Source: Escherichia phage radambza. From it: DNA of 64,000 bases. This document shows positions 1 to 59,606 of the stretch, one piece after another; position 1 is the stretch's first letter; the number at the start of each line of letters is the position of its first letter. The notes beneath the pieces were generated by a model that saw only the letters and a list, made by a program, of their open reading frames with translations, was not told the DNA's origin and did no database searches. The stretch lies in the sequence record MN850639.1. One strand, 5' to 3'. The position numbers and the translations under genes were made by a program.

Positions 1-1788
1 ATCAATGTCAACTCCACAACCAGATGCTTTGATGAGACGTCCTGTATCTGGATTGTACCAAGTATGACCAGCAATACCAGTTGACTTACCATGCCGACGG
101 CACTTAGTTAACTTGATTTTTGTCAAGTTTTTCTTAACAGGGTCTGGGTCAACCTTGTTACGCATTAACAGAATGTTGTTCATAGAAATCTGGAAATACG
201 CACCAGAGCCTTTGATATCCTCTTCAGAGATATCTCCACCTTCAGAGTTGGCTTTCTGACCCCCTGCGCTCTTACGAACGTGACAGACGTTCACCTGTGC
301 ATACTGGTAGCGTTTGCAACGGCGCAATAGTTCAGACAAAACTTCCTCTTCATCCGTATCTGAACGTGACAGAGCCAACGTAATAGGGTCAAGAATAATA
401 ATCTTACAGTCTAAACTGTTAACAAGATAGTCAACAAATTCCAGCAGGTTATCTTGGTCAATTGCACCTTGATGGTCTACGATGTGGATACGACGACCTT
501 TAGATAGCTCTGCATGTGCTTCCTTCAATTCATCCCAATCACGTTCGTCATAAGGAATCTCAGAAATCTGCTTGCTGAGGTGGATTGCACAGAGCATCTC
601 CATCAACTCTTCATAGGTATCTTCGACCGGAATTACACCAATATTGTAATCGGTATCTTTCCAAGCAGTATAAATCATTTCACGAGTGTATGCTGATTTA
701 CCCACTGAAGATGGTGCTGCCAGAGTTGTAATCTCACCTAAACCATAACCGCCATAAGTCAGCCTGTTCAAATCTCCGAAAGATTCTGGGAAAGGAATCA
801 ATGGAATCTGACCACGATTCTTCATTGCCTCAAAACCATCTGCGAAGTTCTTGATACCAGCAGGGCAGTAACGGGGCGCATTGTAGATACGCTGCTTAAA
901 CCCTTCAAGAACTGTGTCTTTCTCTTTATAGAACTTTGTCCACCATTCGTTAAGGTCTTTTACACCTTCTGGATACTGGAATAAACGAACCTTCTCAATA
1001 GGTAGGATACCAGCAGCCTCTTTGGTAGCTTTAGCACCTGCTTCATCGTTATCAAAGCACAAGTAAATCTCATCAAATGATGTGATGTACTGATAGTTGT
1101 CTTTGATAGACTTAATGTTTGCACCTGATGGTACAGATACGTGACAGTAATTCTTACGACGAGACTTATCTTTAATCGCAAGAGAAGTCATATAGATTGC
1201 TGTCGCACATTCCATCTCACCTTCCCAGATGAATAGACGGTTACCGCCTTCTGGAGCAATCCATGAACCGAACATTGCCAGTTCACCTTTAATGTCTCCA
1301 ACACCACCAGAAAAGTCTTTTAGCTTACCACGTAGGTGCTCTTTTGGATGGTCTTCTGGGTAACGGTGACGAACACGGTAACCAACATGTTCTAGCTTAC
1401 CATCTTCATTACGTTTGTAAGTTGGATAGAAATGTGCGTCAATTTCACCATCACTGTCAATGTCAACCTTGATACCTAAGCGTTCAAGGACTTTTGCAGG
1501 AATCTTCCTGTCTTTCAAGTCCATTGCTTCTAGGTTTTCTTTTACATCGTCTAAATCCATTCCACGGAAAGTACGGTTTTTATTGTCTGAACCAGTAGAA
1601 TAAGTGCTCACGATTTGTCCTTTATCAAAATCCCACTCTGGGAAACCTTTGTTACAACTAAAGCAAGTCATCGAATAAGAATCATCGTCATGATGATAGA
1701 TTGAACCAGCATCTGATGAACCACAACGTGGACATGCACAATGACCAATAAACTGACCAGCCTCTTTCAATTTACGACCTTTAGACAT
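1..1788 (-). CDS. DNA primase-helicase, T7 gp4-like (partial; C-terminus beyond window start)
   Basis: Minus-strand frame open from ATG at 1788 to base 1 (ORF track omits it, no stop in window). N-term MSKGRKLKEAGQFIGHCACPRCGSSDAGS = CxxC zinc ribbon of primases; Walker A APSSVGKSAY near 690-730. RBS GAGGTG upstream. Confidence 0.8.
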   Translation of the reverse strand, partial: MSKGRKLKEAGQFIGHCACPRCGSSDAGSIYHHDDDSYSMTCFSCNKGFPEWDFDKGQIVSTYSTGSDNKNRTFRGMDLDDVKENLEAMDLKDRKIPAKVLERLGIKVDIDSDGEIDAHFYPTYKRNEDGKLEHVGYRVRHRYPEDHPKEHLRGKLKDFSGGVGDIKGELAMFGSWIAPEGGNRLFIWEGEMECATAIYMTSLAIKDKSRRKNYCHVSVPSGANIKSIKDNYQYITSFDEIYLCFDNDEAGAKATKEAAGILPIEKVRLFQYPEGVKDLNEWWTKFYKEKDTVLEGFKQRIYNAPRYCPAGIKNFADGFEAMKNRGQIPLIPFPESFGDLNRLTYGGYGLGEITTLAAPSSVGKSAYTREMIYTAWKDTDYNIGVIPVEDTYEELMEMLCAIHLSKQISEIPYDERDWDELKEAHAELSKGRRIHIVDHQGAIDQDNLLEFVDYLVNSLDCKIIILDPITLALSRSDTDEEEVLSELLRRCKRYQYAQVNVCHVRKSAGGQKANSEGGDISEEDIKGSGAYFQISMNNILLMRNKVDPDPVKKNLTKIKLTKCRRHGKSTGIAGHTWYNPDTGRLIKASGCGVDID

Positions 1789-3596: not shown

Positions 3597-4019
3597 TTAT
3601 TTCTCTCTCAGTTGGTTAAGTTTCTTTCTAGAGCATTTTAAGTTTTCAGATGAAGAAAAGTCAAGTGTCTTTTCAGAACGTGGATAATAGTGTCTATCCC
3701 AAGAAGTTTCAACATCGTTAATCAGTGACGCTAGATTACACAGGTCTGTACCACTTTGCAACCTCTTTTTAAGAGAATCTAGTAAAGCAACTGTGTCTTT
3801 AGCTTTACGTCTCGCTGTAGCAACATCTTTCATATGCTCAAATACAGAGCATTTTAAGTCATCTTCATAGTTTTCAGACAACTCTATTTCATGTTGTATA
3901 TCAACCATTCTCCTGTGATGGTGAGCATATTCCCGTTGAGCAGCAATGTCAAGTTCTTCCAACTTCTGCAAAGCTCTAACAAAGTCAGCTATGTCTGGGT
4001 GAACAAACATTTTCTGCAT
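3597..4019 (-). CDS. hypothetical protein (140 aa)
   Basis: ORF track; adjacent to previous ORF, first gene of the leftward operon. Confidence 0.5.
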   Translation of the reverse strand: MQKMFVHPDIADFVRALQKLEELDIAAQREYAHHHRRMVDIQHEIELSENYEDDLKCSVFEHMKDVATARRKAKDTVALLDSLKKRLQSGTDLCNLASLINDVETSWDRHYYPRSEKTLDFSSSENLKCSRKKLNQLREK

Positions 4020-4194
4020 GTAAGCCTCTTTTAAGTAACTATTAAGTTTTAATCTTTTATCTTAACGTATTCTATACGTTATACTTTAAAGCTTTTTAAA
4101 AGCTATTAAATAATCTTTTAAGAGTTTTAAAGTATCTGTATAGTTAAACTGTTAAGTAACCTTTTAAGTAAAAACCCACTTCGCAAAGATTAAC

Positions 4195-4217
4195 ACCTTG
4201 TCAAGTACATTGTCAAC
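4195..4217 (+). promoter_or_regulatory. conserved motif ACCTTGTCAAGTACATTGTCAAC in divergent promoter region
   Basis: Two TGTCAA half-sites around an AAGTAC core, followed by TATAAT at 4226-4231; 60 bp upstream of the DNA polymerase start. Confidence 0.5.
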
Positions 4218-4276
4218 TTGCTTTTTATAATTTTTTGCAGTAATGTATGAGGTTAATGATTTTAGAGGGAGTAAAA

Positions 4277-6976
4277 ATGGAAAACGTAGATTTTAAAAAC
4301 TTACATTTGGTTGGTGATACAGAAACTGATGGTTTACTCCTTGAGTTCACTAAAGTGCACGTAATGGCTTTCGCAGACTATAAATCTGACGAGGAAGAGC
4401 CACCTGTATGGGTCTTTACAGATGAACCTATCCTCGGTCACAAGTACACCAAGTACATCAAGGGTGGCTTACGTGAAGGTATTGAGTTTGCGTTAAAGGC
4501 AAAACGTCTTTGCATCCACAACGGTCTCGGTTATGACTGGTGGGTTTTCAATCACATTGCACCTGATTTATGGAACTTTGATAATCCAAAGTGTAAACCG
4601 TGGAGTAATTTCTTTCAGGATTCTCTTATCCAGTCTCGTGTTCAGTGGATGGATAGACCAACTCCAAAGGGTTATAAAGGTGCTCATGGTTTGGCTGCAT
4701 GGGGTGCTCGTGTTGGTGTTCGTAAACCAGAGATTGAGCATTGGGGTGTGTGGAATGCAGAAATCTTCACTCGTGTTGTAGAAGATATCCGTATTAACGC
4801 CAAAACTAAACGGGCACTTGATAACGAGTATCTCAAGCTTAAGAAGTGTGGCATAGACACTTATGAAACCTACATGCGAGCTAAAGAAACATCTTTCTGG
4901 ATGAGTCAACAAGCTATTAATGGTTGGAAAGCTGATAAAGAGCTTATGGAGTTCCATGTAAAGGAACTTGACAAGTTGACTAATGAGCTTGCTTCAGAGG
5001 TTGAACCACATCTTCCTCCAACTATTAAGACTAAAGGTAAAGTTACTGGAGAAGAGTTTGCAAAAGCTTGGAATGAGTATGTTGAAGCGTTCGGTCATGC
5101 AGATGGACTGAAGAGAATTACCAAGTACCCTAAGACGAAGTACCGTCAGCAGGTACGTAACGGTGAGATGCAGACATATGAAATCAAGCCATTTGGTAAG
5201 CCAACTACAAAGATTTTTAACATTGAAAAAAGAAATTGCTATACACCAACCAACACTGTAACTGGTGAAGAGTACAAGGAAGGTTTTGTAGCAATGAAGG
5301 ATGCTCGTGCAATTTGCAATGCGTTGAACGCAAAGATTGGTAAGAAATGCAAAGACTGGAAGCCAGTAAAAACAGTCAAAACTGTGAAGTACTATAACAG
5401 TCACGTTGTTAACCACTTTGAACTTGAGTCAAGTCGCTACACAGGTTTGATTGATGCACCATATACACCAATTGAGTTCGAAGTTTCTCGTATGACTCAG
5501 GTAGCAGTTGTTAAAGACTACTTGAAATCAGTTGGTTGGATTCCAGATGACTGGAACTACAAGAAAGACTCTGATGGTCGCCCTGTCAAAGTTTGTCGTT
5601 TCAAAGACAATAAAAAGATGATTACAAAGCATCCTAAGTGGCAGGAAATGGTTGAGCGGTGTGGTTTGAGTTATGTTGAACATGAAGGTGTACAGTACAT
5701 CGAGCATAACTGGTCTGTGAAGAAATACACAGATTTGCTTGAACCTTGCTTAATCCGTACTTCACCAAAACTTACTGAATCATCTTATGATACGATTGAA
5801 GGTGAGCTTGGACAGAAGATTGCTAAGTACTATACTTTGATGCACCGACGCAGAACTATTGAGAACTCAAAGGATGATGAAAAAGGTTGGTTGAACCAGA
5901 TTCGTCCTGATGGTCGCCTTAGTGCTGGTGCAATGGTATTTGGTACTTCAACTGGACGTATGACACAATATGGTATTGTAAACGTACCGTCTGGTGCTGC
6001 TGTCTATGGAGCACCTATGAGGGAGGTGTGGACTTGTGAAGATGGTACAGATATCATCTCCGTAGACCAAAACTCAGCCCAGCTAGTTCTTCTTTGTAAC
6101 TTTATGGGTGATGAAGACTTCACTAAAGCGGTAACTGAGGGTAAAGAGTCAGTAGAGTTCACTAAGCAAGATGATGGTAGATACTACTGTAAGCATCTTG
6201 ACAAGTATCTTAACCCAGAAACTGACAAGTATCTGCGTTATGATGCTGAAAATGACCTCTATGAAGTCTACACAGGGACTGATGCACATACACTGAACAG
6301 TATTTACTTTGGTCTGAACAAAGAAGAAGATATTGTTCGTTGTAGGGAGACACAGGATGAGGAACTTCTTCACGAAATTACAAAAGGCCGTAAGAAGGCT
6401 AAGAATGGCATCTACGCCCTGTTATTTGGAGCCGGAGACGAGAAGTTTGCAAAAACTATCAAGGCATCATCTACGGAAGAGGGTGCGTTAACTAAACAAA
6501 CTTACTTTGTGCGCCTCCCTAAGATTAAGAAGCTGCTGGACAGGTTAGAGGAAGACTTCAAAGCAACTAAGAAAGCACTTGAAGAGGTTTTCGGAAAAAC
6601 TTCTGCAATTGCCAAAGGTGGTTATATCAAAGTTGCTGGAGCGTGGTTATGGTGTAAATCTCCACATAAGTTATTGAATTACACACTTATGGGTAGTGAG
6701 GCTCAGGTGCAGAATGAGGGTATTAACTTGGCTAACAGAGAGTTAACAGAGCGTAAGCTTACAGTCCTAAATGGTAGGAAGCCCGCTATTGGTGCTAGGT
6801 GGGTCTGTAGTTACCACGATGAGGTCTCTTTAGAGGTTCCAACAAAAGATGTACCTGATGTTAAGGAGATTATTGATAGAATGTATGGTCAAGCATCAAA
6901 AAATCTTGGATTAAAGAGTAAGACGCTTGTTACAGGCACTGGTAAGGTAGGTAAGACATGGTACGCCGTACACTAA
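4277..6976 (+). CDS. DNA polymerase, family A (Pol I / T7-like) with 3'-5' exonuclease
   Basis: 900 aa ORF; start moved to ATG 4277 behind RBS AGGGAG; exo motif DTETDG; C-terminal motif C SYHDEVSLEV (HDE). Confidence 0.85.
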   Translation: MENVDFKNLHLVGDTETDGLLLEFTKVHVMAFADYKSDEEEPPVWVFTDEPILGHKYTKYIKGGLREGIEFALKAKRLCIHNGLGYDWWVFNHIAPDLWNFDNPKCKPWSNFFQDSLIQSRVQWMDRPTPKGYKGAHGLAAWGARVGVRKPEIEHWGVWNAEIFTRVVEDIRINAKTKRALDNEYLKLKKCGIDTYETYMRAKETSFWMSQQAINGWKADKELMEFHVKELDKLTNELASEVEPHLPPTIKTKGKVTGEEFAKAWNEYVEAFGHADGLKRITKYPKTKYRQQVRNGEMQTYEIKPFGKPTTKIFNIEKRNCYTPTNTVTGEEYKEGFVAMKDARAICNALNAKIGKKCKDWKPVKTVKTVKYYNSHVVNHFELESSRYTGLIDAPYTPIEFEVSRMTQVAVVKDYLKSVGWIPDDWNYKKDSDGRPVKVCRFKDNKKMITKHPKWQEMVERCGLSYVEHEGVQYIEHNWSVKKYTDLLEPCLIRTSPKLTESSYDTIEGELGQKIAKYYTLMHRRRTIENSKDDEKGWLNQIRPDGRLSAGAMVFGTSTGRMTQYGIVNVPSGAAVYGAPMREVWTCEDGTDIISVDQNSAQLVLLCNFMGDEDFTKAVTEGKESVEFTKQDDGRYYCKHLDKYLNPETDKYLRYDAENDLYEVYTGTDAHTLNSIYFGLNKEEDIVRCRETQDEELLHEITKGRKKAKNGIYALLFGAGDEKFAKTIKASSTEEGALTKQTYFVRLPKIKKLLDRLEEDFKATKKALEEVFGKTSAIAKGGYIKVAGAWLWCKSPHKLLNYTLMGSEAQVQNEGINLANRELTERKLTVLNGRKPAIGARWVCSYHDEVSLEVPTKDVPDVKEIIDRMYGQASKNLGLKSKTLVTGTGKVGKTWYAVH

Positions 6977-7461
6977 CACTTCAAGATTACAAGGATAATT
7001 TTATTTACGACCCCGACAAAGGGGTCTTCTACAACAAGTACGACAGGAATAGACAAGCTAAAGCTGGGCAGATTGCAGGAGGTGCTGATGCTTACGGTTA
7101 CAAAGTACTTAAATTCAAAGATGTCGTAATAAAAATTCATCACCTCGTTTGGTGGTTTGAGCATGGTTACAAACCCACTAAGATGATAGACCACATTGAT
7201 GGTAACAGGAGTAATAATCACATTTCTAATCTTAGGGAGGCTGATAAATACGGAAATGCTCAAAATAGAGTAAAGCAGACAACTAACAAATCAGGTTACA
7301 AGGGTGTTTATTACTTTAAAGACTGCAATAAGTGGAGGGCGACTATAACATGCAGAGGTAAAAGGACATCACTTGGTTTATTTGACACACCAGAAGAAGC
7401 CCATAAAGCTTACTGTGAAGCTGCTGTAAAACTCCACGGAGAGTTTGCAAAACTAAGTTGA
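6958..7461 (+). CDS. HNH homing endonuclease with AP2-like DNA-binding domain
   Basis: HHLVWWFEHGY...DHIDGNRSNNHISNLR (HNH) followed by YKGVYY...WRA...GLFDTPEEAHKAY (AP2-like); overlaps pol 3' end by 19 nt. Confidence 0.7.
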   Translation: MVRRTLTLQDYKDNFIYDPDKGVFYNKYDRNRQAKAGQIAGGADAYGYKVLKFKDVVIKIHHLVWWFEHGYKPTKMIDHIDGNRSNNHISNLREADKYGNAQNRVKQTTNKSGYKGVYYFKDCNKWRATITCRGKRTSLGLFDTPEEAHKAYCEAAVKLHGEFAKLS

Positions 7462-10712: not shown

Positions 10713-10925
10713 ATGGCTCTTAAAAAGTTACATCCCAGAAGCGGTTATGGTAAGATAATTGATGATACAGATGGCTTTACAGTCTTTACAGTTATCTGTC
10801 AAGATGATTCACAGATTGAAAAGGCTCTTGATGATTATCTTAACGATGAACGTGAAAAGGTTAGGGCTACGAACATAGATTCATTGATTGACACTTCACG
10901 CAAACGGAAGAAGAAAGATGAATGA
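10713..10925 (+). CDS. hypothetical protein (70 aa)
   Basis: ORF track; tightly coupled to the upstream gene. Confidence 0.45.
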   Translation: MALKKLHPRSGYGKIIDDTDGFTVFTVICQDDSQIEKALDDYLNDEREKVRATNIDSLIDTSRKRKKKDE

Positions 10926-11217
10926 GGTTTTTGACCCTTATGCCCCACAAGATGATTGGGAGGCTGATAGAGAGGCTGAAATGGAGAGTTATATTTGTCC
11001 AATGGATGTAGACGAAATGAGAGACTTCGTTGCACATCGTTTTAAGAGAGAGATTAAATCAAGAGGTCTTTCTCAAGAGCAAGTTGCTAAAATTTGTGGT
11101 ATCTCTCAGGCTCGTGTATCCAACATAATCCATCTCACTGGTAACGTCTCCCTTGAGTATATGTTGGAAGTATGTGAAAAATTTGGTGTTAATTTCAATT
11201 TAAGGTTGGCAGACTAA
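10918..11217 (+). CDS. putative helix-turn-helix DNA-binding protein
   Basis: LSQEQVAKICGISQARVSNII resembles an XRE-type HTH; start moved to ATG 10918. Confidence 0.5.
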   Translation: MNEVFDPYAPQDDWEADREAEMESYICPMDVDEMRDFVAHRFKREIKSRGLSQEQVAKICGISQARVSNIIHLTGNVSLEYMLEVCEKFGVNFNLRLAD

Positions 11218-18042: not shown

Positions 18043-26061
<8,019 letters not shown>

Positions 26062-45089: not shown

Positions 45090-45217
45090 TGGTATGCCTC
45101 TTATAAGACCTCTTAAAAGGCTTTTAAGATAAAAGATAGATATCCAGAAAGATATCTGTTTAAATAGCCTTTTTAGAGGAACCTTTTAAGTTATCTTCTA
45201 AGTATTTATAAGCCTAC

Positions 45218-45240
45218 ACCTTGTCAAGTACTTTGTCAAC
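45218..45240 (+). promoter_or_regulatory. second copy of the motif (ACCTTGTCAAGTACTTTGTCAAC)
   Basis: 22 of 23 identical to the 4195 copy; sits in the divergent region before the rightward operon. Confidence 0.5.
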
Positions 45241-45338
45241 AACTTTTTTAACTTGCAATAGTTCTTGACTTGTTGTATGGATTACTGTACCATCTTACTT
45301 AAAGCTGTAGGTCTGCCTTGTTCTACAAAGGAGACTTA

Positions 45339-45500
45339 ATGAGAAAATCAAATAAACCGAAGAAAGGTAAGAATACCAATCACTGTAAGGAATCAAAAAG
45401 GGTAGAATTAATCTACTATTCATCCTCTGAAATTGGTCTGTACCTGTTCTTTCAAAATTACAGAAGACAAGAGGATTATCTATGTGTAGTTCCCAATTAG
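45339..45500 (+). CDS. hypothetical small protein (53 aa)
   Basis: Track ORF uses TTG at 45318; ATG 45339 behind RBS AAGGAGA. Confidence 0.4.
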   Translation: MRKSNKPKKGKNTNHCKESKRVELIYYSSSEIGLYLFFQNYRRQEDYLCVVPN

Positions 45501-52684: not shown

Positions 52685-53233
52685 ATGGAAAAAGATAACT
52701 TAAAAGAAGTTGAAGGTAACTACTTAGTACTTGACTGGAAGGATGTTCGGGAAGCACTCTCCGAAGAAAATCTTGACTGGTTCGAACAAATTATCTTTGC
52801 AGTACGGCATAACCGAGAAGTTGAAAATGGTAAAGAGCCACTTGAAGGAATCTTTGTAGAAAGGTCTTATCCATTCTATGAAGACACTTTGCAGAAAGTT
52901 AAGATGTACTTTAAACAGAAGAACCGTAAAGTGGTCACTATGGTATCTCTTGGTGGACAGAGTATGTCTGTGATGGAAGATATCAACCCTAAGAGACCAA
53001 GTAAGGGTGTCTGTATAAAAATCACAGGTCATGAAGAGTACATCTCAGCAAGTGATTTTAGTGTGTTCTGTAATGGTTCTGCTGTCTTTAATGGGTTTCA
53101 CTATGATATCCGAGTGTACCCAATCAAGGGAGATGATATCATGATGCAGATATTCGATAACAATAATGGGTTCACTCATTTTTACCAGACAACTAAGTCA
53201 TCCTTGAAGACAGTTTTAGAAAGCCTGATTTAA
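52685..53233 (+). CDS. hypothetical protein (182 aa)
   Basis: Track start 52640 is TTG; first in-frame ATG at 52685. Confidence 0.45.
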   Translation: MEKDNLKEVEGNYLVLDWKDVREALSEENLDWFEQIIFAVRHNREVENGKEPLEGIFVERSYPFYEDTLQKVKMYFKQKNRKVVTMVSLGGQSMSVMEDINPKRPSKGVCIKITGHEEYISASDFSVFCNGSAVFNGFHYDIRVYPIKGDDIMMQIFDNNNGFTHFYQTTKSSLKTVLESLI

Positions 53234-53244
53234 AATATCTTAAG

Positions 53245-53276
53245 AGCCTCCTTAATTGGGGGCTTTTTAATTTTTA
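53245..53276 (+). terminator. rho-independent terminator ending the rightward operon
   Basis: AGCCTCC-TTAATT-GGGGGCT hairpin followed by TTTTTAATTTTT. Confidence 0.55.
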
Positions 53277-54659
53277 TAAAATTTTATCGGTTGTTCCAAC
53301 CTCTGGGTCACCATCACATGTGAATAAAATATCTACCCTTCTTAACAACCTTCTTAAGCTTACTCTCTATATATAGTTATATAGTACTATATAGTATCTT
53401 AGTATCTATCTAGTGGTCTTAATAGCCCCTCTGTATAAACCTTCTAAACACTCTTCTAACAAGCCTTCTTAACAACCTATACAATCACCTTAACCATCCC
53501 TCTACACCCTCTTAGAAGCTCCTATACACCTCTTAATCTCTATGTCAGCTATGTTACCCTCTATAGGTGTTCACTAGGTATTACTAAACCTCTATATAGA
53601 CTGTTTTAACAAACTTAACAGGAATATCTTTACAGACCTTATCTCACAAGGTCTAACACGGTACTAACAAGGTATCTTATAAGCCTGTTATTACCTGTAT
53701 TTTTAAAAGGCTGTATAGGTAATTATTCAGAATCTTAAAATTTTTATAAAATAGGACTATCAAGTCATTTTTTAGGGTCTTTGAAGGAACTGAAAAATAT
53801 CTGTAGAGGATGTATATCTGCTTGGTAGCCCTTAACAGCTCCCTTACAAGTACTTTGCAAAATTTTAAAATATCCTTAACAATCTCTTAACAGTTCTCAC
53901 ATCTTCTTAACAACTCTTCAAAGGTCTTAACAGTTTCTTAACAGAACTAACAAGGGCTTAACAGTTTTCTAGGGATTGGTAACAATACCAATTAACAAGT
54001 GCTGAATAGTCTTTACAGAGGCTTAACAGATGACTAACAAGAGCTAACAAGTTAATTTTAAAGAGTTATTTTGTTAAGATAATTAACAAGTTCCTAACAA
54101 GTGTTTAATCTTTTTAACAAGCTGTTAACATGGTCACTACTCTTTTCTTATCGTTCCCTTTCCTTTCTTAGTGATTCTTTAAACATACCTCTTAAAAGCT
54201 CTGTATAGCTCTGCATAACCCCTTTTAAGTCTCTTCCTAGTATCTACAGCCCAACTATACAGACACCTCTTTATAAGGCTTTACAGAAGCTTTAAAGGCT
54301 ATGTCAAAGACTCTTACAAGGCTTTTACGTGGTCTTAACAGAGATTTAACAAGGGGCTAACAAGTTGCTAACAAGTGCCTTAAAAGCATAACTATGTAGG
54401 ATTTGTTAAGAAATTGTTAAGAAAATGTTAAGGGGGCTAGCATTTACGTAACTTTTAAGCTACTTCAAAGTAACTTTTAAGCCCCTATAACATACTTTAA
54501 GACACTAACAAGCCCTTTTTAGTTATTCACAAGATAGCTAACGAGATGATAAAGCTTACACCCTTATAAGATTCTTTTAAGGCTCTGGGAAGCTCTAGGA
54601 AGGGCTTTTTAGAGTGGGTTAATATGATTGCTTAAGTTAGGTTGATAAGGCTGTTATAG

Positions 54660-54689
54660 AGCGTTTTAGAGCGTTTTAGAGCGTTTTAG
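54660..54689. repeat. tandem repeat (GAGCGTTTTA) x3
   Basis: Three exact adjacent 10-mers inside the heptamer-repeat region. Confidence 0.7.
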
Positions 54690-54853
54690 TGGTTGCCCTT
54701 CCCTTTCGGGTTATGGGCTTACATTTAAGGGAAAGATTAAGTTGATTTGATAAAAGGCTATAGAGTAGACTATAGAGTTATTGCTTTTTAAGGTCTGGTA
54801 AAGTTCTGACTTGTTAGGTGGGTTTTAAGATTCTGGAAAGGAATTTGATAGAC

Positions 54854-54879
54854 GTAAAAAAAGCCCCATTTAAGGGGCT
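54854..54879 (-). terminator. rho-independent terminator ending the leftward small-gene array
   Basis: On the minus strand AGCCCC-TTAAAT-GGGGCT followed by TTTTTTT. Confidence 0.55.
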
Positions 54880-54917
54880 GTAAAGGTATCTGGGGCTATT
54901 TAGCCCCGTTGCGGCGT

Positions 54918-55166
54918 TTAGTTAGTGCCTTCTTTGTCGTAGTACAGGGAGACAATTTTTTCACCCCAGTAGTGGTATGTATAACCCTCTTTGAGAGCTT
55001 CCTGTTTTGTTTCTTTCCAGAATTCATCAGAGGGGTTGTAGTCACTGATGGTCTGGCTGATAAGGCCTTTCACCATTTCAAAGGCGTTATCAGTACCTAC
55101 AAGGTCAAATTTAACGTCCAGAGAGTAGAAGCCAAATTCGTTAACAGTTGCGCGGATAGTAGCCAT
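54918..55166 (-). CDS. hypothetical protein (82 aa)
   Basis: Preceded by cassette A copy 1. Confidence 0.5.
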   Translation of the reverse strand: MATIRATVNEFGFYSLDVKFDLVGTDNAFEMVKGLISQTISDYNPSDEFWKETKQEALKEGYTYHYWGEKIVSLYYDKEGTN

Positions 55167-55271
55167 TTTTGAATCTCCAGTTTAGGAAGTTGATTAAGGG
55201 TTTTATTTAGTGGGGAAGGTCATTCCCTCCCCGTTGATTGACAATTTACAAACTTTTGATTGTCTCGTCAA
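55167..55271 (-). promoter_or_regulatory. cassette A copy 1: sigma70-like promoter + 5' hairpin + RBS
   Basis: Minus strand TTGACG-17 bp-TAAATT, then hairpin GGGGAGGG-AAUGA-CCUUCCCC, then GGAGAUUCAAAAAUG. Confidence 0.55.
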
Positions 55272-55776
55272 TATCTTTTTCAATATCTTTTAAAGTTTTT
55301 TCTAAGTTCTTGATATTGAAAGATAAGCCTTCCCCCAGTGTCTTAGAGTAACCGCTAGGACGTGAGTCATAGAGTTCGATTTCTTCCACTTCGAAGAGGC
55401 TAACCAACTCACCGCTTACACTGTAAGCCATTGAAACAGTATTTACAGGGGCTTTATAGAACTTGTTTAAAGACTTGATAGAACGCTCGTAAGCCATTTT
55501 ATAGCCATTTAAAAGGTCTTTAACGTGGTTACGAACGTTTTTACACTCATCTAAGTAAATCTCTAAGAATAACGGTAATAATTCTGCTACAGCTTGCATA
55601 AAGTGAGAGACTACAACGGTTGCAACATTACGACGATGGATATAATAAGCCCCGTTTTCTGATTTGGTGATGGTTGCAAAGTGTACACCGTTGCAGCGGA
55701 ATTCATAGGTATCTTTAACAGGCTTAGACATTACAGCATTTGAGCGAATGTAGTTGATAGCTCGAAATTTGTTCAT
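55246..55776 (-). CDS. hypothetical protein (176 aa)
   Basis: Track ORF reads through the cassette; trimmed to the ATG that directly follows the cassette RBS. Confidence 0.5.
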   Translation of the reverse strand: MNKFRAINYIRSNAVMSKPVKDTYEFRCNGVHFATITKSENGAYYIHRRNVATVVVSHFMQAVAELLPLFLEIYLDECKNVRNHVKDLLNGYKMAYERSIKSLNKFYKAPVNTVSMAYSVSGELVSLFEVEEIELYDSRPSGYSKTLGEGLSFNIKNLEKTLKDIEKDIDETIKSL

Positions 55777-55868
55777 TTTTGAATCTCCTAGTTTAAGGAC
55801 TTTGTTTAGTGGGGAGGTCATTACCTCCCGTTGATTAGTAATTTACTTGTTTTGATATCTGATTGCAA
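55777..55868 (-). promoter_or_regulatory. cassette A copy 2
   Basis: TTGCAA-17-TAAATT, hairpin GGGAGGUAAUGACCUCCC, RBS AGGAGA, ATG. Confidence 0.55.
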
Positions 55869-55997
55869 GCAATTTTTTAAGTTTATCTATAAAGAATCTT
55901 TTAAGTTAATCCCTTTTAGATAAACCCCCTCGAACAAATCTACCAATGTCAAGGGGCGTTGTCAATACTTTTTTGAAAGTTTTTTGTAAGTTATTGA

Positions 55998-57272: not shown

Positions 57273-57363
57273 TTTTGAATCTCCTAGTTTAAGGATTGAG
57301 TGATTAAGCTCTTTATCTGGGGCTTAAGATATCAACTTCCAAGCCCCCTGTAAAGTACTTTAT
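57273..57363 (-). promoter_or_regulatory. cassette B copy 1: palindrome + hairpin + RBS
   Basis: Minus strand near-palindrome TGTAAAGTACTTTAT, hairpin GGGGGCUUGGAAGUUGAUAUCUUAAGCCCC, then GGAGAUUCAAAAAUG. Confidence 0.5.
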
Positions 57364-57563
57364 TTGTTATTTTTGACAACTTTTAAAACTGCAAGATAAC
57401 CTAAGCAATAAGAATCACCGAAGAGAGTCCTACCCATGAAAGAGTCCTCTTTGATATCCTTTGCAGTGACAGTTTTCTCTACGCCGTGGGAAAGGACTAC
57501 ATCACCAACTTTAATATCTTTGATGTGAGTTGTTTCAATGTGTAAGCCGTTAATAATAGCCAT
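57360..57563 (-). CDS. hypothetical protein (67 aa)
   Basis: Preceded by cassette A copy 4. Confidence 0.45.
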   Translation of the reverse strand: MAIINGLHIETTHIKDIKVGDVVLSHGVEKTVTAKDIKEDSFMGRTLFGDSYCLGYLAVLKVVKNNK

Positions 57564-57654
57564 TTTAGAATCTCCAGTTTAGGATTTTATTTAGTGGGAA
57601 GGTCATCCCCTTCCCGTTGATGTGTAATTTAATCTATCTAAAAACCAGTGTCAA
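57564..57654 (-). promoter_or_regulatory. cassette A copy 4
   Basis: TTGACA-17-TAAATT, hairpin GGGAAGGGGAUGACCUUCCC, RBS GGAGA. Confidence 0.6.
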
Positions 57655-58068: not shown

Positions 58069-58158
58069 TTTAGAATCTCCAATTTAGGATTGAGTGGTAA
58101 AGTTCTTTATCTGGGGCTTACTTTATCGAACTATAAGCCCCCTGTAAAGTACTTTACA
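58069..58158 (-). promoter_or_regulatory. cassette B copy 2
   Basis: Perfect 16 bp palindrome TGTAAAGTACTTTACA (58143-58158), hairpin GGGGCUUAUAGUUCGAUAAAGUAAGCCCC, RBS UGGAGA. Confidence 0.55.
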
Positions 58159-58426
58159 CTAAATGCAGTTTTTTACCTTTTACTATAATGTAACTCGATG
58201 CACTATTGCTTTGCACATCCTGATAAATTCTGCGCAAACGGCCTTCATAGTGTACTTTCCAACTGGTTGGAATCTTTTTACCGTATCCGGTAGCAGTTTT
58301 TTGGAGTCCTGCGACTTGCCAATCTAAGATATGTTGTTCAGCTTGTAAGTCTTCAAAGTGCATGACACCATCTACATAGTGACGTAGTGTGACATTTAAA
58401 GTGCGACCGTTGTTAGTAGTATACAT
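58154..58426 (-). CDS. hypothetical protein (90 aa)
   Basis: Preceded by cassette A copy 5. Confidence 0.5.
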   Translation of the reverse strand: MYTTNNGRTLNVTLRHYVDGVMHFEDLQAEQHILDWQVAGLQKTATGYGKKIPTSWKVHYEGRLRRIYQDVQSNSASSYIIVKGKKLHLV

Positions 58427-58518
58427 TTTAGAATCTCCAGTTTAGGACTTTATTTAGTGGGGAAGGTCATCCCCTTCCCGTTGATGTGTAATTTAATCTA
58501 TCTAAAAATCAGTGTCAA
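58427..58518 (-). promoter_or_regulatory. cassette A copy 5
   Basis: TTGACA (58513-58518 rc)-17-TAAATT (58490-58495 rc), hairpin GGGAAGGGGAUGACCUUCCCC, RBS GGAGA. Confidence 0.6.
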
Positions 58519-59137: not shown

Positions 59138-59226
59138 TTTTGAATCTCCAGTTTAGGATTTAGTGGTAAAGCTCTTTATCTGGGGCTTACTTTATCGAAC
59201 TATAAGCCCCTTGTAAAGTACTTTAT
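59138..59226 (-). promoter_or_regulatory. cassette B copy 3
   Basis: Near-palindrome TGTAAAGTACTTTAT, same GGGGCUUAUAGUUCGAUAAAGUAAGCCCC hairpin, RBS GGAGA. Confidence 0.5.
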
Positions 59227-59606
59227 CAGTTAATTTTGAAGATTGTTACATAACCATCGCTCCCGATGATTTGTGATACTCCAGCTTTTTCTACTTGATA
59301 GCCCATATTTTCAAGATGATAAATAGCGTCATCGTAACCATATGCGCCACCCTGATAACGTCTCTTATCGCATCTTATCAGGTTTTTTCCACGCCCAGCA
59401 AGTGCATGTAGAATTGTTTTTTCACTTGAAAGAGTGCCATCTAACATGGTTGCCGTGTAATGGTTGATTTTATTCCCGTTGATATCATACTTAAAATTGA
59501 ACGAGTGAACAACAATCACATTACCTTTGAAATTTTCATCAAGTGACTTCTCCAGTACGCTACGAAAGTTGTCTTTGTTGATGAATTTAGGCGCACGATA
59601 TTTCAT
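59226..59606 (-). CDS. hypothetical protein (126 aa)
   Basis: First gene of the array; preceded by cassette A copy 6. Confidence 0.5.
   Translation of the reverse strand: MKYRAPKFINKDNFRSVLEKSLDENFKGNVIVVHSFNFKYDINGNKINHYTATMLDGTLSSEKTILHALAGRGKNLIRCDKRRYQGGAYGYDDAIYHLENMGYQVEKAGVSQIIGSDGYVTIFKIN

Follow-up and report, generated by a model that had tools for sequence, protein, structure and literature searches.

Felix O1-type phages are in wide use for Salmonella typing, biocontrol and cell-free phage synthesis. The Felix O1 genome has been divided into four transcription units (97-131/1-23, 96-80, 40-24 and 41-79), and neither a phage RNA polymerase nor recognised modifiers of the host enzyme or its sigma factor were found in it (Whichard et al., 2010; PMC3185647). 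The same study reported late-sigma-type genes (gp55/gp33) to be absent, predicted only few host-type promoters, P41 among them, and declared the temporal regulation of the phage unknown; by RT-PCR, ORFs 41, 42, 97 and 98 peaked at 25 min instead of the first time point sampled (Whichard et al., 2010; PMC3185647). For the Felix O1-like phage UAB_Phi87, BPROM predicted 42 promoters of the TTGACA/TATAAT type. In the literature searched, we found no start sites, RNA polymerase binding or transcriptomes for Felix O1-like phages.

The closest described elements are strong sigma-70 promoters with an UP element, as in the early regions of lytic coliphages and at rrn P1. The two sites analysed here, termed P97 and P41, resemble these in an A-tract, TTGACA, a spacer of 17-18 bp, TAnnnT, a TGn (in one copy), the position at the head of a transcription unit and in that no phage RNA polymerase is needed. 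They differ in a second TTGACA 4-7 bp after the first and in a weak -10. In T4-type phages, early promoters occur as mobile cassettes, the promoter-early stem-loops. Similarly, a near-identical promoter segment recurs here across contexts and phages; however, neither site has a stem-loop, and transfer is read from sequence identity. The element is of an ordinary kind, apart from the conserved second hexamer and an echo in another phage family.

Two copies of a 23-bp motif in divergent intergenic regions

The window, i.e., the whole stretch of DNA that was analysed, comprises 64,000 nucleotides of Escherichia phage radambza (MN850639.1) and belongs to a Felix O1-like myovirus, reverse-complemented with respect to NC_005282. 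Salmonella phage Felix O1 and about 260 further Felixounavirus-type records match the region 3600-7000 in reverse orientation, at 97-98% identity. The following layout was derived from the NC_005282 annotation together with maps of the ORFs and tRNAs in the window:

up to 4019, minus strand: leftward genes, headed by the ORF97 homologue (4019..3597)
from 4277, plus strand: rightward DNA polymerase operon
up to the ORF41 homologue (45089..44718), minus strand: structural genes and 24 tRNAs
from 45339, plus strand: rightward gene-40 operon
about 53.2-55.2 kb: long non-coding stretch, with leftward early genes beyond

The original prediction had described a 23-bp motif shared by both divergent regions and regarded it as an operator or promoter element of the rightward operons:

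4195-4217: motif copy 1, plus strand ACCTTGTCAAGTACATTGTCAAC, minus strand GTTGACAATGTACTTGACAAGGT; core of the putative promoter P97
45218-45240: motif copy 2, plus strand ACCTTGTCAAGTACTTTGTCAAC, minus strand GTTGACAAAGTACTTGACAAGGT; core of the putative promoter P41

Both copies were present at these positions and were the sole matches with up to 3 mismatches on either strand of the window, and no match occurred in 100 dinucleotide-preserving shuffles. The genome-wide search gave the same picture for Felix O1, whose whole reference genome contains exactly two copies at the homologous sites, with GTGC replacing GTAC in both. The divergent, AT-rich setting was confirmed as well (G+C 20-30% and 28-33% at the copies compared to about 39% overall), as was the richness of these regions in CTTTTAAG, of which the window has 15 plus-strand copies where about 2 are expected, clustered near the motif copies at 4028/4115/4161 and 45121/45183. 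The predicted distance of 60-80 bp to the rightward gene applied to copy 1 (60 nt to the ATG at 4277) but not to copy 2 (99 nt to the ATG at 45339).

Two further sites had been related to the motif:

53842-53860: proposed motif variant, ACAAGTAC
58143: class B palindrome, with variants at 57349 and 59212

Neither relation held. The sequence at 53842 exists, yet it deviates from the motif at 7 of 23 positions, and neither TGTCAA hexamer is present; its Felix O1 counterpart is ACACCCCC, between flanks that are 94% identical. The class B palindrome has only AAGTACTTT in common with the motif, which is the part without evolutionary constraint, and the 11-mer CAAGTACWTTG is not enriched in the window (6 matches, 4.8 expected). 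No known RNA family was identified at the motif sites, only tRNAs passing the Rfam thresholds, and the exact motif sequence had no matches in the literature.

The motif as tandem -35 hexamers of probable leftward promoters

Read on the opposite strand, the motif becomes GTTGACA-A(A/T)GTAC-TTGACA-AGGT, in which two sigma-70 -35 hexamers, both perfect, follow each other with a period of 12 bp. In the window as well as in Felix O1, TTGACA-N6-TTGACA is restricted to these two sites and always shares the strand of ORF97 and ORF41. On this strand, copy 1 forms part of AAAAAGCAAG-TTGACA-(18 bp)-TAATCT, with TGT immediately preceding the -10, and copy 2 of AAAAAAGTTG-TTGACA-(17 bp)-TAGGCT. The proposed parts of the two promoters are, all on the minus strand:

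4217..4226: P97 A-tract AAAAAGCAAG, UP-element-like, just upstream of the -35; block CTTGCTTTTT invariant
4211..4216: P97 distal TTGACA, proposed -35, 6/6 consensus; invariant in 23 distinct sequences upstream of the polymerase gene
4199..4204: P97 proximal TTGACA, inside the spacer; conserved
4187..4195: P97 extended -10, TGT TAATCT, 18 bp from the distal hexamer
45240..45249: P41 A-tract AAAAAAGTTG, upstream of the -35
45234..45239: P41 distal TTGACA, proposed -35, 6/6 consensus; invariant in relatives
45222..45227: P41 proximal TTGACA, inside the spacer; conserved
45211..45216: P41 -10 TAGGCT, 17 bp from the distal hexamer

Both copies combine a -35 that matches TTGACA at all six positions with a -10 having T1, A2 and T6 at 16-18 bp, and both are co-oriented with and located upstream of ORF97 and ORF41, respectively, on the minus strand. 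Key positions and spacer length are kept in evolution while the spacer sequence is free, as in sigma-70 promoters, except that the second hexamer is conserved. Both -10 hexamers match TATAAT at only 3/6 positions, which is why a generic consensus scanner missed them. The element points leftward because of the minus-strand TTGACA, the A-tract upstream of it and the conserved TAnnnT 17/18 bp downstream.

We consider it probable, at roughly 70%, that the motif represents the -35 hexamer and most of the spacer of two paralogous host sigma-70 promoters on the minus strand. The units served would most likely be the leftward ones, i.e., ORF97 onward, and ORF41 with the tRNAs and structural genes. The weak -10 hexamers and the RT-PCR maximum of ORFs 41, 42, 97 and 98 at 25 min count against this interpretation. 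The original prediction was thus supported in regarding the motif as a promoter-region element common to several transcription units, but not in assigning it to the rightward operons, as the informative strand is the minus strand. On infection, unmodified host polymerase would bind both promoters, each made up of an A5-6 tract, a perfect TTGACA, a 17- or 18-bp spacer with the second TTGACA 6 bp on, and a TAnnnT -10. Leftward transcription is predicted to start near 4180 and 45204. The P97 transcript would have an AT-rich leader of about 160 nt followed by ORF97 and the genes for replication and nucleotide metabolism (Felix O1 unit 97-131/1-23), and the P41 transcript an AT-rich leader of about 115 nt followed by ORF41, the tRNA cluster and the structural genes (Felix O1 unit 41-79). 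The two copies would look alike because they belong to the same type of promoter. Polymerase binding, start sites, timing and the role of the second hexamer are what we infer from these features.

The P41 promoter of Whichard et al. (2010; PMC3185647), TTGACA-N15-TATAGG at 21515-21541 of Felix O1, has the TTGACA and the orientation of the distal hexamer of copy 2. A 15-bp spacer and TATAGG were chosen there, whereas the relatives compared here favour N17 and TAGGCT. Whichard et al. (2010) reported no homologous sequence in the 96-97 region, where copy 1 was found here, and did not remark on the tandem hexamer. The motif strings are not present in the supplementary promoter table of the UAB_Phi87 paper.

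Conservation in related phages

Intergenic regions of relatives were taken from IMG/VR, picked by similarity of the polymerase or ORF41 protein and not by the motif, and were then aligned. The alignment of close relatives comprised about 25 genomes with polymerase identities of 90-100%. Both TGTCAA boxes were invariant in 23 (copy 1) and 17 (copy 2) distinct sequences, and near the proximal hexamer of copy 1 only a single flanking position had changed (CCTGTCAAG, in L161). By contrast, the 4-6 intervening bases varied freely (GTACA, GCGCA, GTGTA, GTGAA, GTTAT, GAGGA, TCCCC and others). The AAGTAC regarded as the core by the original prediction is therefore unconstrained, being the least conserved part of the motif, and the constraint would lie on TTGACA-N6-TTGACA and its flanks instead. 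Concerted evolution of the two copies, as the GTGC found twice in Felix O1 might suggest, was ruled out, as the central 6-mers of the two copies vary independently within a genome across 22 genomes.

The -10 of copy 1 reads TG[T/G]TA[A/G]TCT among the relatives, so that only n-type positions change. For copy 2, TAGGCT, TAGCCT, TAAGTT and TAGTGT were found, with T1, A2 and T6 fixed and positions 3-5 free; judged from the alignment, this is the variation expected of a genuine -10.

Distant Ounavirinae (Pectobacterium, Erwinia and Hafnia phages) lack the 23-mer, yet where examined they have TTGACA-17/18-TAnnnT in the same orientation. Pectobacterium phage Arno162, with a polymerase 63% identical, has no tandem hexamer anywhere, but TTGACA-18-TGA TACCCT before the ORF41 homologue and TTGACA-17-TAGGCT before the ORF97 homologue. 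In the polymerase-side regions that were examined, Erwinia vEam_PM_21 has TTGACA-17-TACATT towards the ORF97 homologue, and in Hafnia Zyzzx two TTGACA hexamers repeat with a 10-bp period, the distal one being followed at 17 bp by TATTGT. From these three phages, orientation and the spacing between distal hexamer and -10 are kept across the subfamily where examined, and the second hexamer is not universal in it. A plain sigma-70 promoter leaves the conserved second TTGACA in the spacer unaccounted for.

A putative class of tandem-hexamer promoters and the HTH protein gp85

The window was searched for TTGACA-16..18-TAnnnT with TTGA(C/T)A inside the spacer. Four sites were obtained, all on the minus strand, intergenic and with an A-tract upstream, compared to 0.017 in shuffles. 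Plain TTGACA-16..18-TAnnnT is also enriched in the window (20 versus 3.5). In addition to 4187-4216 and 45211-45239, the sites are:

43173..43201, minus strand: third tandem promoter candidate, TTGACA-ATGTGT-TTGATA-CCCTT-TAATAT, between ORF42 and the tRNA cluster
55937..55965, minus strand: fourth tandem promoter candidate, TTGACA-ACGCCCC-TTGACA-TTGG-TAGATT, upstream of the ORF 55821..55246

Felix O1 has homologues of three of the four, the one at the tRNA cluster not being detected. In the homologue of 55937-55965, both hexamers are kept, and the bases between them and the n positions of the -10 differ (TAACTT versus TAGATT). The gap between the hexamers is 6, 6, 6 and 7 bp in the window promoters, whereas the Hafnia phage has a gap of 4 bp and the T4-like phages described below one of 5-6 bp. 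Despite the shifting second hexamer, the distal hexamer stays 17-18 bp away from the -10, suggesting a constraint set by polymerase rather than by a rigid protein dimer on both boxes. No -10-like hexamer was found 16-18 bp downstream of the second hexamer.

The second hexamer may alternatively be explained by an operator: the TGTCAA/TTGACA boxes would bind a phage DNA-binding protein, e.g., gp85, which switches both divergent regions by repressing the leftward promoters, activating the rightward ones, or both. Such an operator is compatible with a promoter, and its target would be the second hexamer. The HTH protein encoded at 10888-11217 is Felix O1 gp85, and has an HTH_3 domain. Its gene lies within the polymerase operon, and gp85 is limited to a single clade (Felixounavirus, Mooglevirus and Suspvirus), exactly the one with the 12-bp-period double site; Arno162 lacks both site and protein. 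Sigma-70 is not known to require the proximal hexamer, which is nevertheless invariant. Furthermore, each box is pseudo-palindromic (TTGNCAA), CTTGTCAAG being a 9-bp palindrome, and gp85 resembles sigma-70 region 4, the domain that reads TTGACA; this match is, however, below the Pfam cut-off. The second box of the third promoter, TTGATA, is not palindromic, and a gap of 4-7 bp across promoters and phages, at a constant 17-18 bp from distal hexamer to -10, also speaks against an operator. The Hafnia phage has the tandem hexamers without a gp85 homologue, and a search of the phage record collection gave no gp85 match among its cultured T4-like phages. With tandem hexamers present in both groups, an operator role of the second hexamer is possible but not favoured, and we regard it as rather unlikely. 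The phage regulator invoked by the original prediction is likewise not needed to explain the motif, as the hexamers occur in phages without the HTH protein named there.

Operators of the Cro/CI type are similar in having a short conserved repeat over the -35 and spacer and an HTH_3 protein encoded nearby. They differ in that the repeats here are direct and not inverted, vary in spacing and occur in phages without the HTH protein; the dyad-symmetric half-sites at fixed spacing of such operators were not observed, the repeats being direct and the gap 4-7 bp.

An antisense element at g55 of T4-like phages

A scan of IMG/VR for TTGTCAAGTNCNTTGTCAA yielded contigs of Felix O1-like phages, numerous coding repeats of 12 nt and a group of T4-like contigs with relatives among cyanophages and pelagiphages. 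In this last group, the element occupies the short interval that directly precedes the late sigma gene g55 (phrog_234), where it abuts the g55 ribosome-binding site, often with the second TTGACA in the spacer. One T4-like contig (L093) shares 35 consecutive bases with copy 2 of the window. The antisense elements at g55 are:

L093:1150-1235, minus strand
L109:1283-1480
L110:1378-1500
L111:1380-1520
L176-L255: about 150 nt upstream of position 701

Eighty g55 loci were picked by protein similarity, a sample skewed towards relatives of the motif-bearing queries. TGTCAAG was present within 220 nt upstream of g55 in 46 of these 80 loci and a double TGTCAA in 20/80, and TTGACA-16..18-TAnnnT antisense to g55 in 42/80. 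The antisense -10 hexamers are mostly very good (TATAAT, TATAGT, TACAAT, TATCAT and others) and precede a conserved CGGTGTTCC. The cultured phages HTVC008M, P-SSM2 and S-MbCM6 likewise have this antisense promoter-like site. A forward ECF-sigma site (GGAAC...GTCAAG) was rejected for these elements, as its spacing ranges from 19 to 31 bp compared to a constant 17 bp between the antisense -35 and -10. We found no description of an antisense promoter at g55 in the literature searched.

These loci support the interpretation of the element as a sigma-70-type promoter, the architecture of which, second hexamer included, is found in more than one phage family. The antisense orientation to the neighbouring genes is odd for a simple promoter. 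A tentative extension, to which we give a low probability, is that the tandem TTGACA is a portable cassette shared horizontally between Felix O1-like and T4-like phages and that the second hexamer is a functional target. The second hexamer could then provide a second contact of the sigma region-4 type or be bound by a small phage protein, for example gp85. Host polymerase bound antisense at the g55 ribosome-binding site might gate the late genes by transcriptional interference; an antisense 5' end just upstream of g55 is predicted near GGUGUUCC. The antisense copy at g55 may bear on the timing of late genes in phages without MotA and AsiA. The second -35-like hexamer, which four promoters here share with a Hafnia phage and numerous T4-like phages, lies outside the textbook promoter; if functional, it would extend promoter architecture in a small but general way and offer a means to engineer early expression in phages.

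Some matches of the scan were of a different nature. A human-microbiome group (L004, L026, L034, L057, L077 and L084) has 26 nt identical to Felix O1 copy 2; it was rejected, as the match lies within an ORF and encodes VDKALDKV. About 40 further IMG/VR matches, in unrelated viral contigs, are coding 12-nt tandem repeats of GTGCTTTGTCAA, in frame and encoding DKAL on the other strand (L010, L014, L016, L017, L025, L027, L036 and about 30 other loci). These repeats match the motif core by chance, and pattern searches with the motif therefore require care.

Candidate rightward promoters

For the rightward operons, the plus strand offers the following candidate promoters, separate from the motif:

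4218..4246, plus strand: P96, candidate DNA polymerase operon promoter, TTGCTT-N17-TAATGT, back to back with P97
45265..45293, plus strand: gene-40 operon promoter candidate, TTGACT-17-TACCAT; block 100% conserved in relatives
45233-45262, plus strand: weaker gene-40 candidate, TTGTCA-18-TGcAATAGT

P96 consists of TTGCTT (4218-4223), a 17-bp spacer and the -10 (4241-4246). In relatives, the -35 is invariant, the spacer is fixed in length and variable in sequence, and the -10 follows TA[A/G][A/G/T]GT (TAATGT, TAAGGT, TAGGGT, TAGTGT) with T1, A2 and T6 invariant; the Hafnia phage has TTGCAA-17-TACTAT at this position. As this conservation pattern is promoter-like, TTGCTT-17-TAATGT was taken as the polymerase promoter. 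The data are best explained, on sequence grounds, by rightward polymerase and gene-40 operons that use their own promoters, back to back with the leftward ones. Host-type heads for the two large leftward units together with these separate rightward promoters would provide a testable transcription map.

Alternatively, the motif itself could be a plus-strand promoter element of the rightward operons, either with TTGTCA, a -35 hexamer with one mismatch, or with a pho-box-like direct repeat replacing the -35. Copy 2 does show TTGTCA-18-TGcAATAGT on the plus strand, with TGn and AATnnT largely conserved, and a TATAAT is found at 4226-4231, 9 bp past copy 1. However, neither TTGTCA of copy 1 has a -10 at 16-18 bp (the distances are 10, 22 and 23 bp), and the TATAAT at 4226 is not conserved, its counterparts in relatives being GAAACT, GTGTCG, GAAGAT, CATAAA and CAAAAA. 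TTGCTT-17-TAATGT better accounts for the polymerase promoter, and at gene 40 the fully conserved TTGACT-17-TACCAT lies further downstream. The repeat period is 12 bp compared to 11 bp in PhoB-type sites, and the distance to the start codon differs between the copies (60 versus 99 nt). We thus consider a plus-strand role of the motif improbable. A PhoB/OmpR-type direct-repeat activator site was rejected on the 12-bp period and the unconserved TATAAT at 4226, for which copy 2 has no equivalent.

A possible replication origin and phage-specific promoter types

The primary origin of T7 consists of a promoter and an AT-rich stretch, and T4 oriF and oriG of a promoter and an unwinding element. By analogy, the promoter and its AT-rich leader could form a transcription-primed replication origin, which is compatible with a sigma-70 promoter. 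Copy 1 has the T7-like DNA polymerase on one side and the T7-like primase/helicase cluster on the other, the leader behind it is the most AT-rich stretch of the region (G+C 20-26%) and has conserved palindromes, and in T4-like phages the element adjoins uvsW and uvsY. However, four such promoters exist, one of them in front of tRNAs, and such an origin appears very unlikely. Changes in GC skew are uninformative here because they coincide with the change in gene orientation.

A T4-type late promoter, for which TATAAATA at 45203-45210 (minus strand) was a candidate, was rejected: the site is not conserved and the octamer is depleted (2 versus about 10 expected). No match to the late sigma family was obtained among the seven window ORFs scanned, and for Felix O1 ORF38, which has 196 aa and lies downstream of copy 2, an identity as an unrecognised gp55 found no support in PHROGs or Pfam. 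A T4 MotA middle promoter was dismissed as well, as the sequence has no MotA box (TGCTTtA) and Whichard et al. report no polymerase-specificity modifiers (PMC3185647).

Repeats and palindromes in leaders and non-coding regions

CTTTTAAG, which reads CTTAAAAG on leftward transcripts, occurs at 4028-4168, 45112-45190, 54191-54581 and 55898, i.e., concentrated in the long non-coding region and in the two leaders that follow the leftward promoters. These leaders also have 12-mers of the ACTTAAAGGTT type in common (ACTTAAAAGGTT), and the equivalent leaders of Arno162 and the Hafnia phage are full of similar TCTTAAAAG and TCTAAACAG words. The minus-strand leader of ORF97 contains two conserved palindromes at 4060-4100, AGCTTTTTAAAAAGCT and (T/A)ACGTATAGAATACGT(A/T). 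The second of these shows compensatory changes in relatives (ACGTAT..ATACGT to ATGTAT..ATACAT), which would fit either an RNA hairpin or a dyad operator. In the leader behind the copy 2 promoter, the inverted repeat GATAGATATCCAGAAAGATATCTG at 45135-45165 is invariant in all aligned relatives.

The region 53233-55246, about 2 kb of non-coding sequence between convergent unit ends, is highly conserved in Felix O1. It holds 9 of the 13 window copies of CTTAACAG (about 1.3 expected for the window as a whole), especially at 53600-54340; conceivable roles are those of an origin, a non-coding RNA or an array of protein-binding sites.

An intergenic cassette is repeated on the minus strand of the leftward early region, at 57280-57430, 58075-58225 and 59145-59295. 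Its elements, in order, are (T)AAAGTACTTTACA, a GGGGCTT...AAGCCCC hairpin and AGATAAAGARCTTTACCACT; the class B palindrome belongs to this cassette. Two near-identical putative promoters, TTGACACTGRTTTTTAGATAGATTAAATT, are located at 57626-57654 and 58490-58518.
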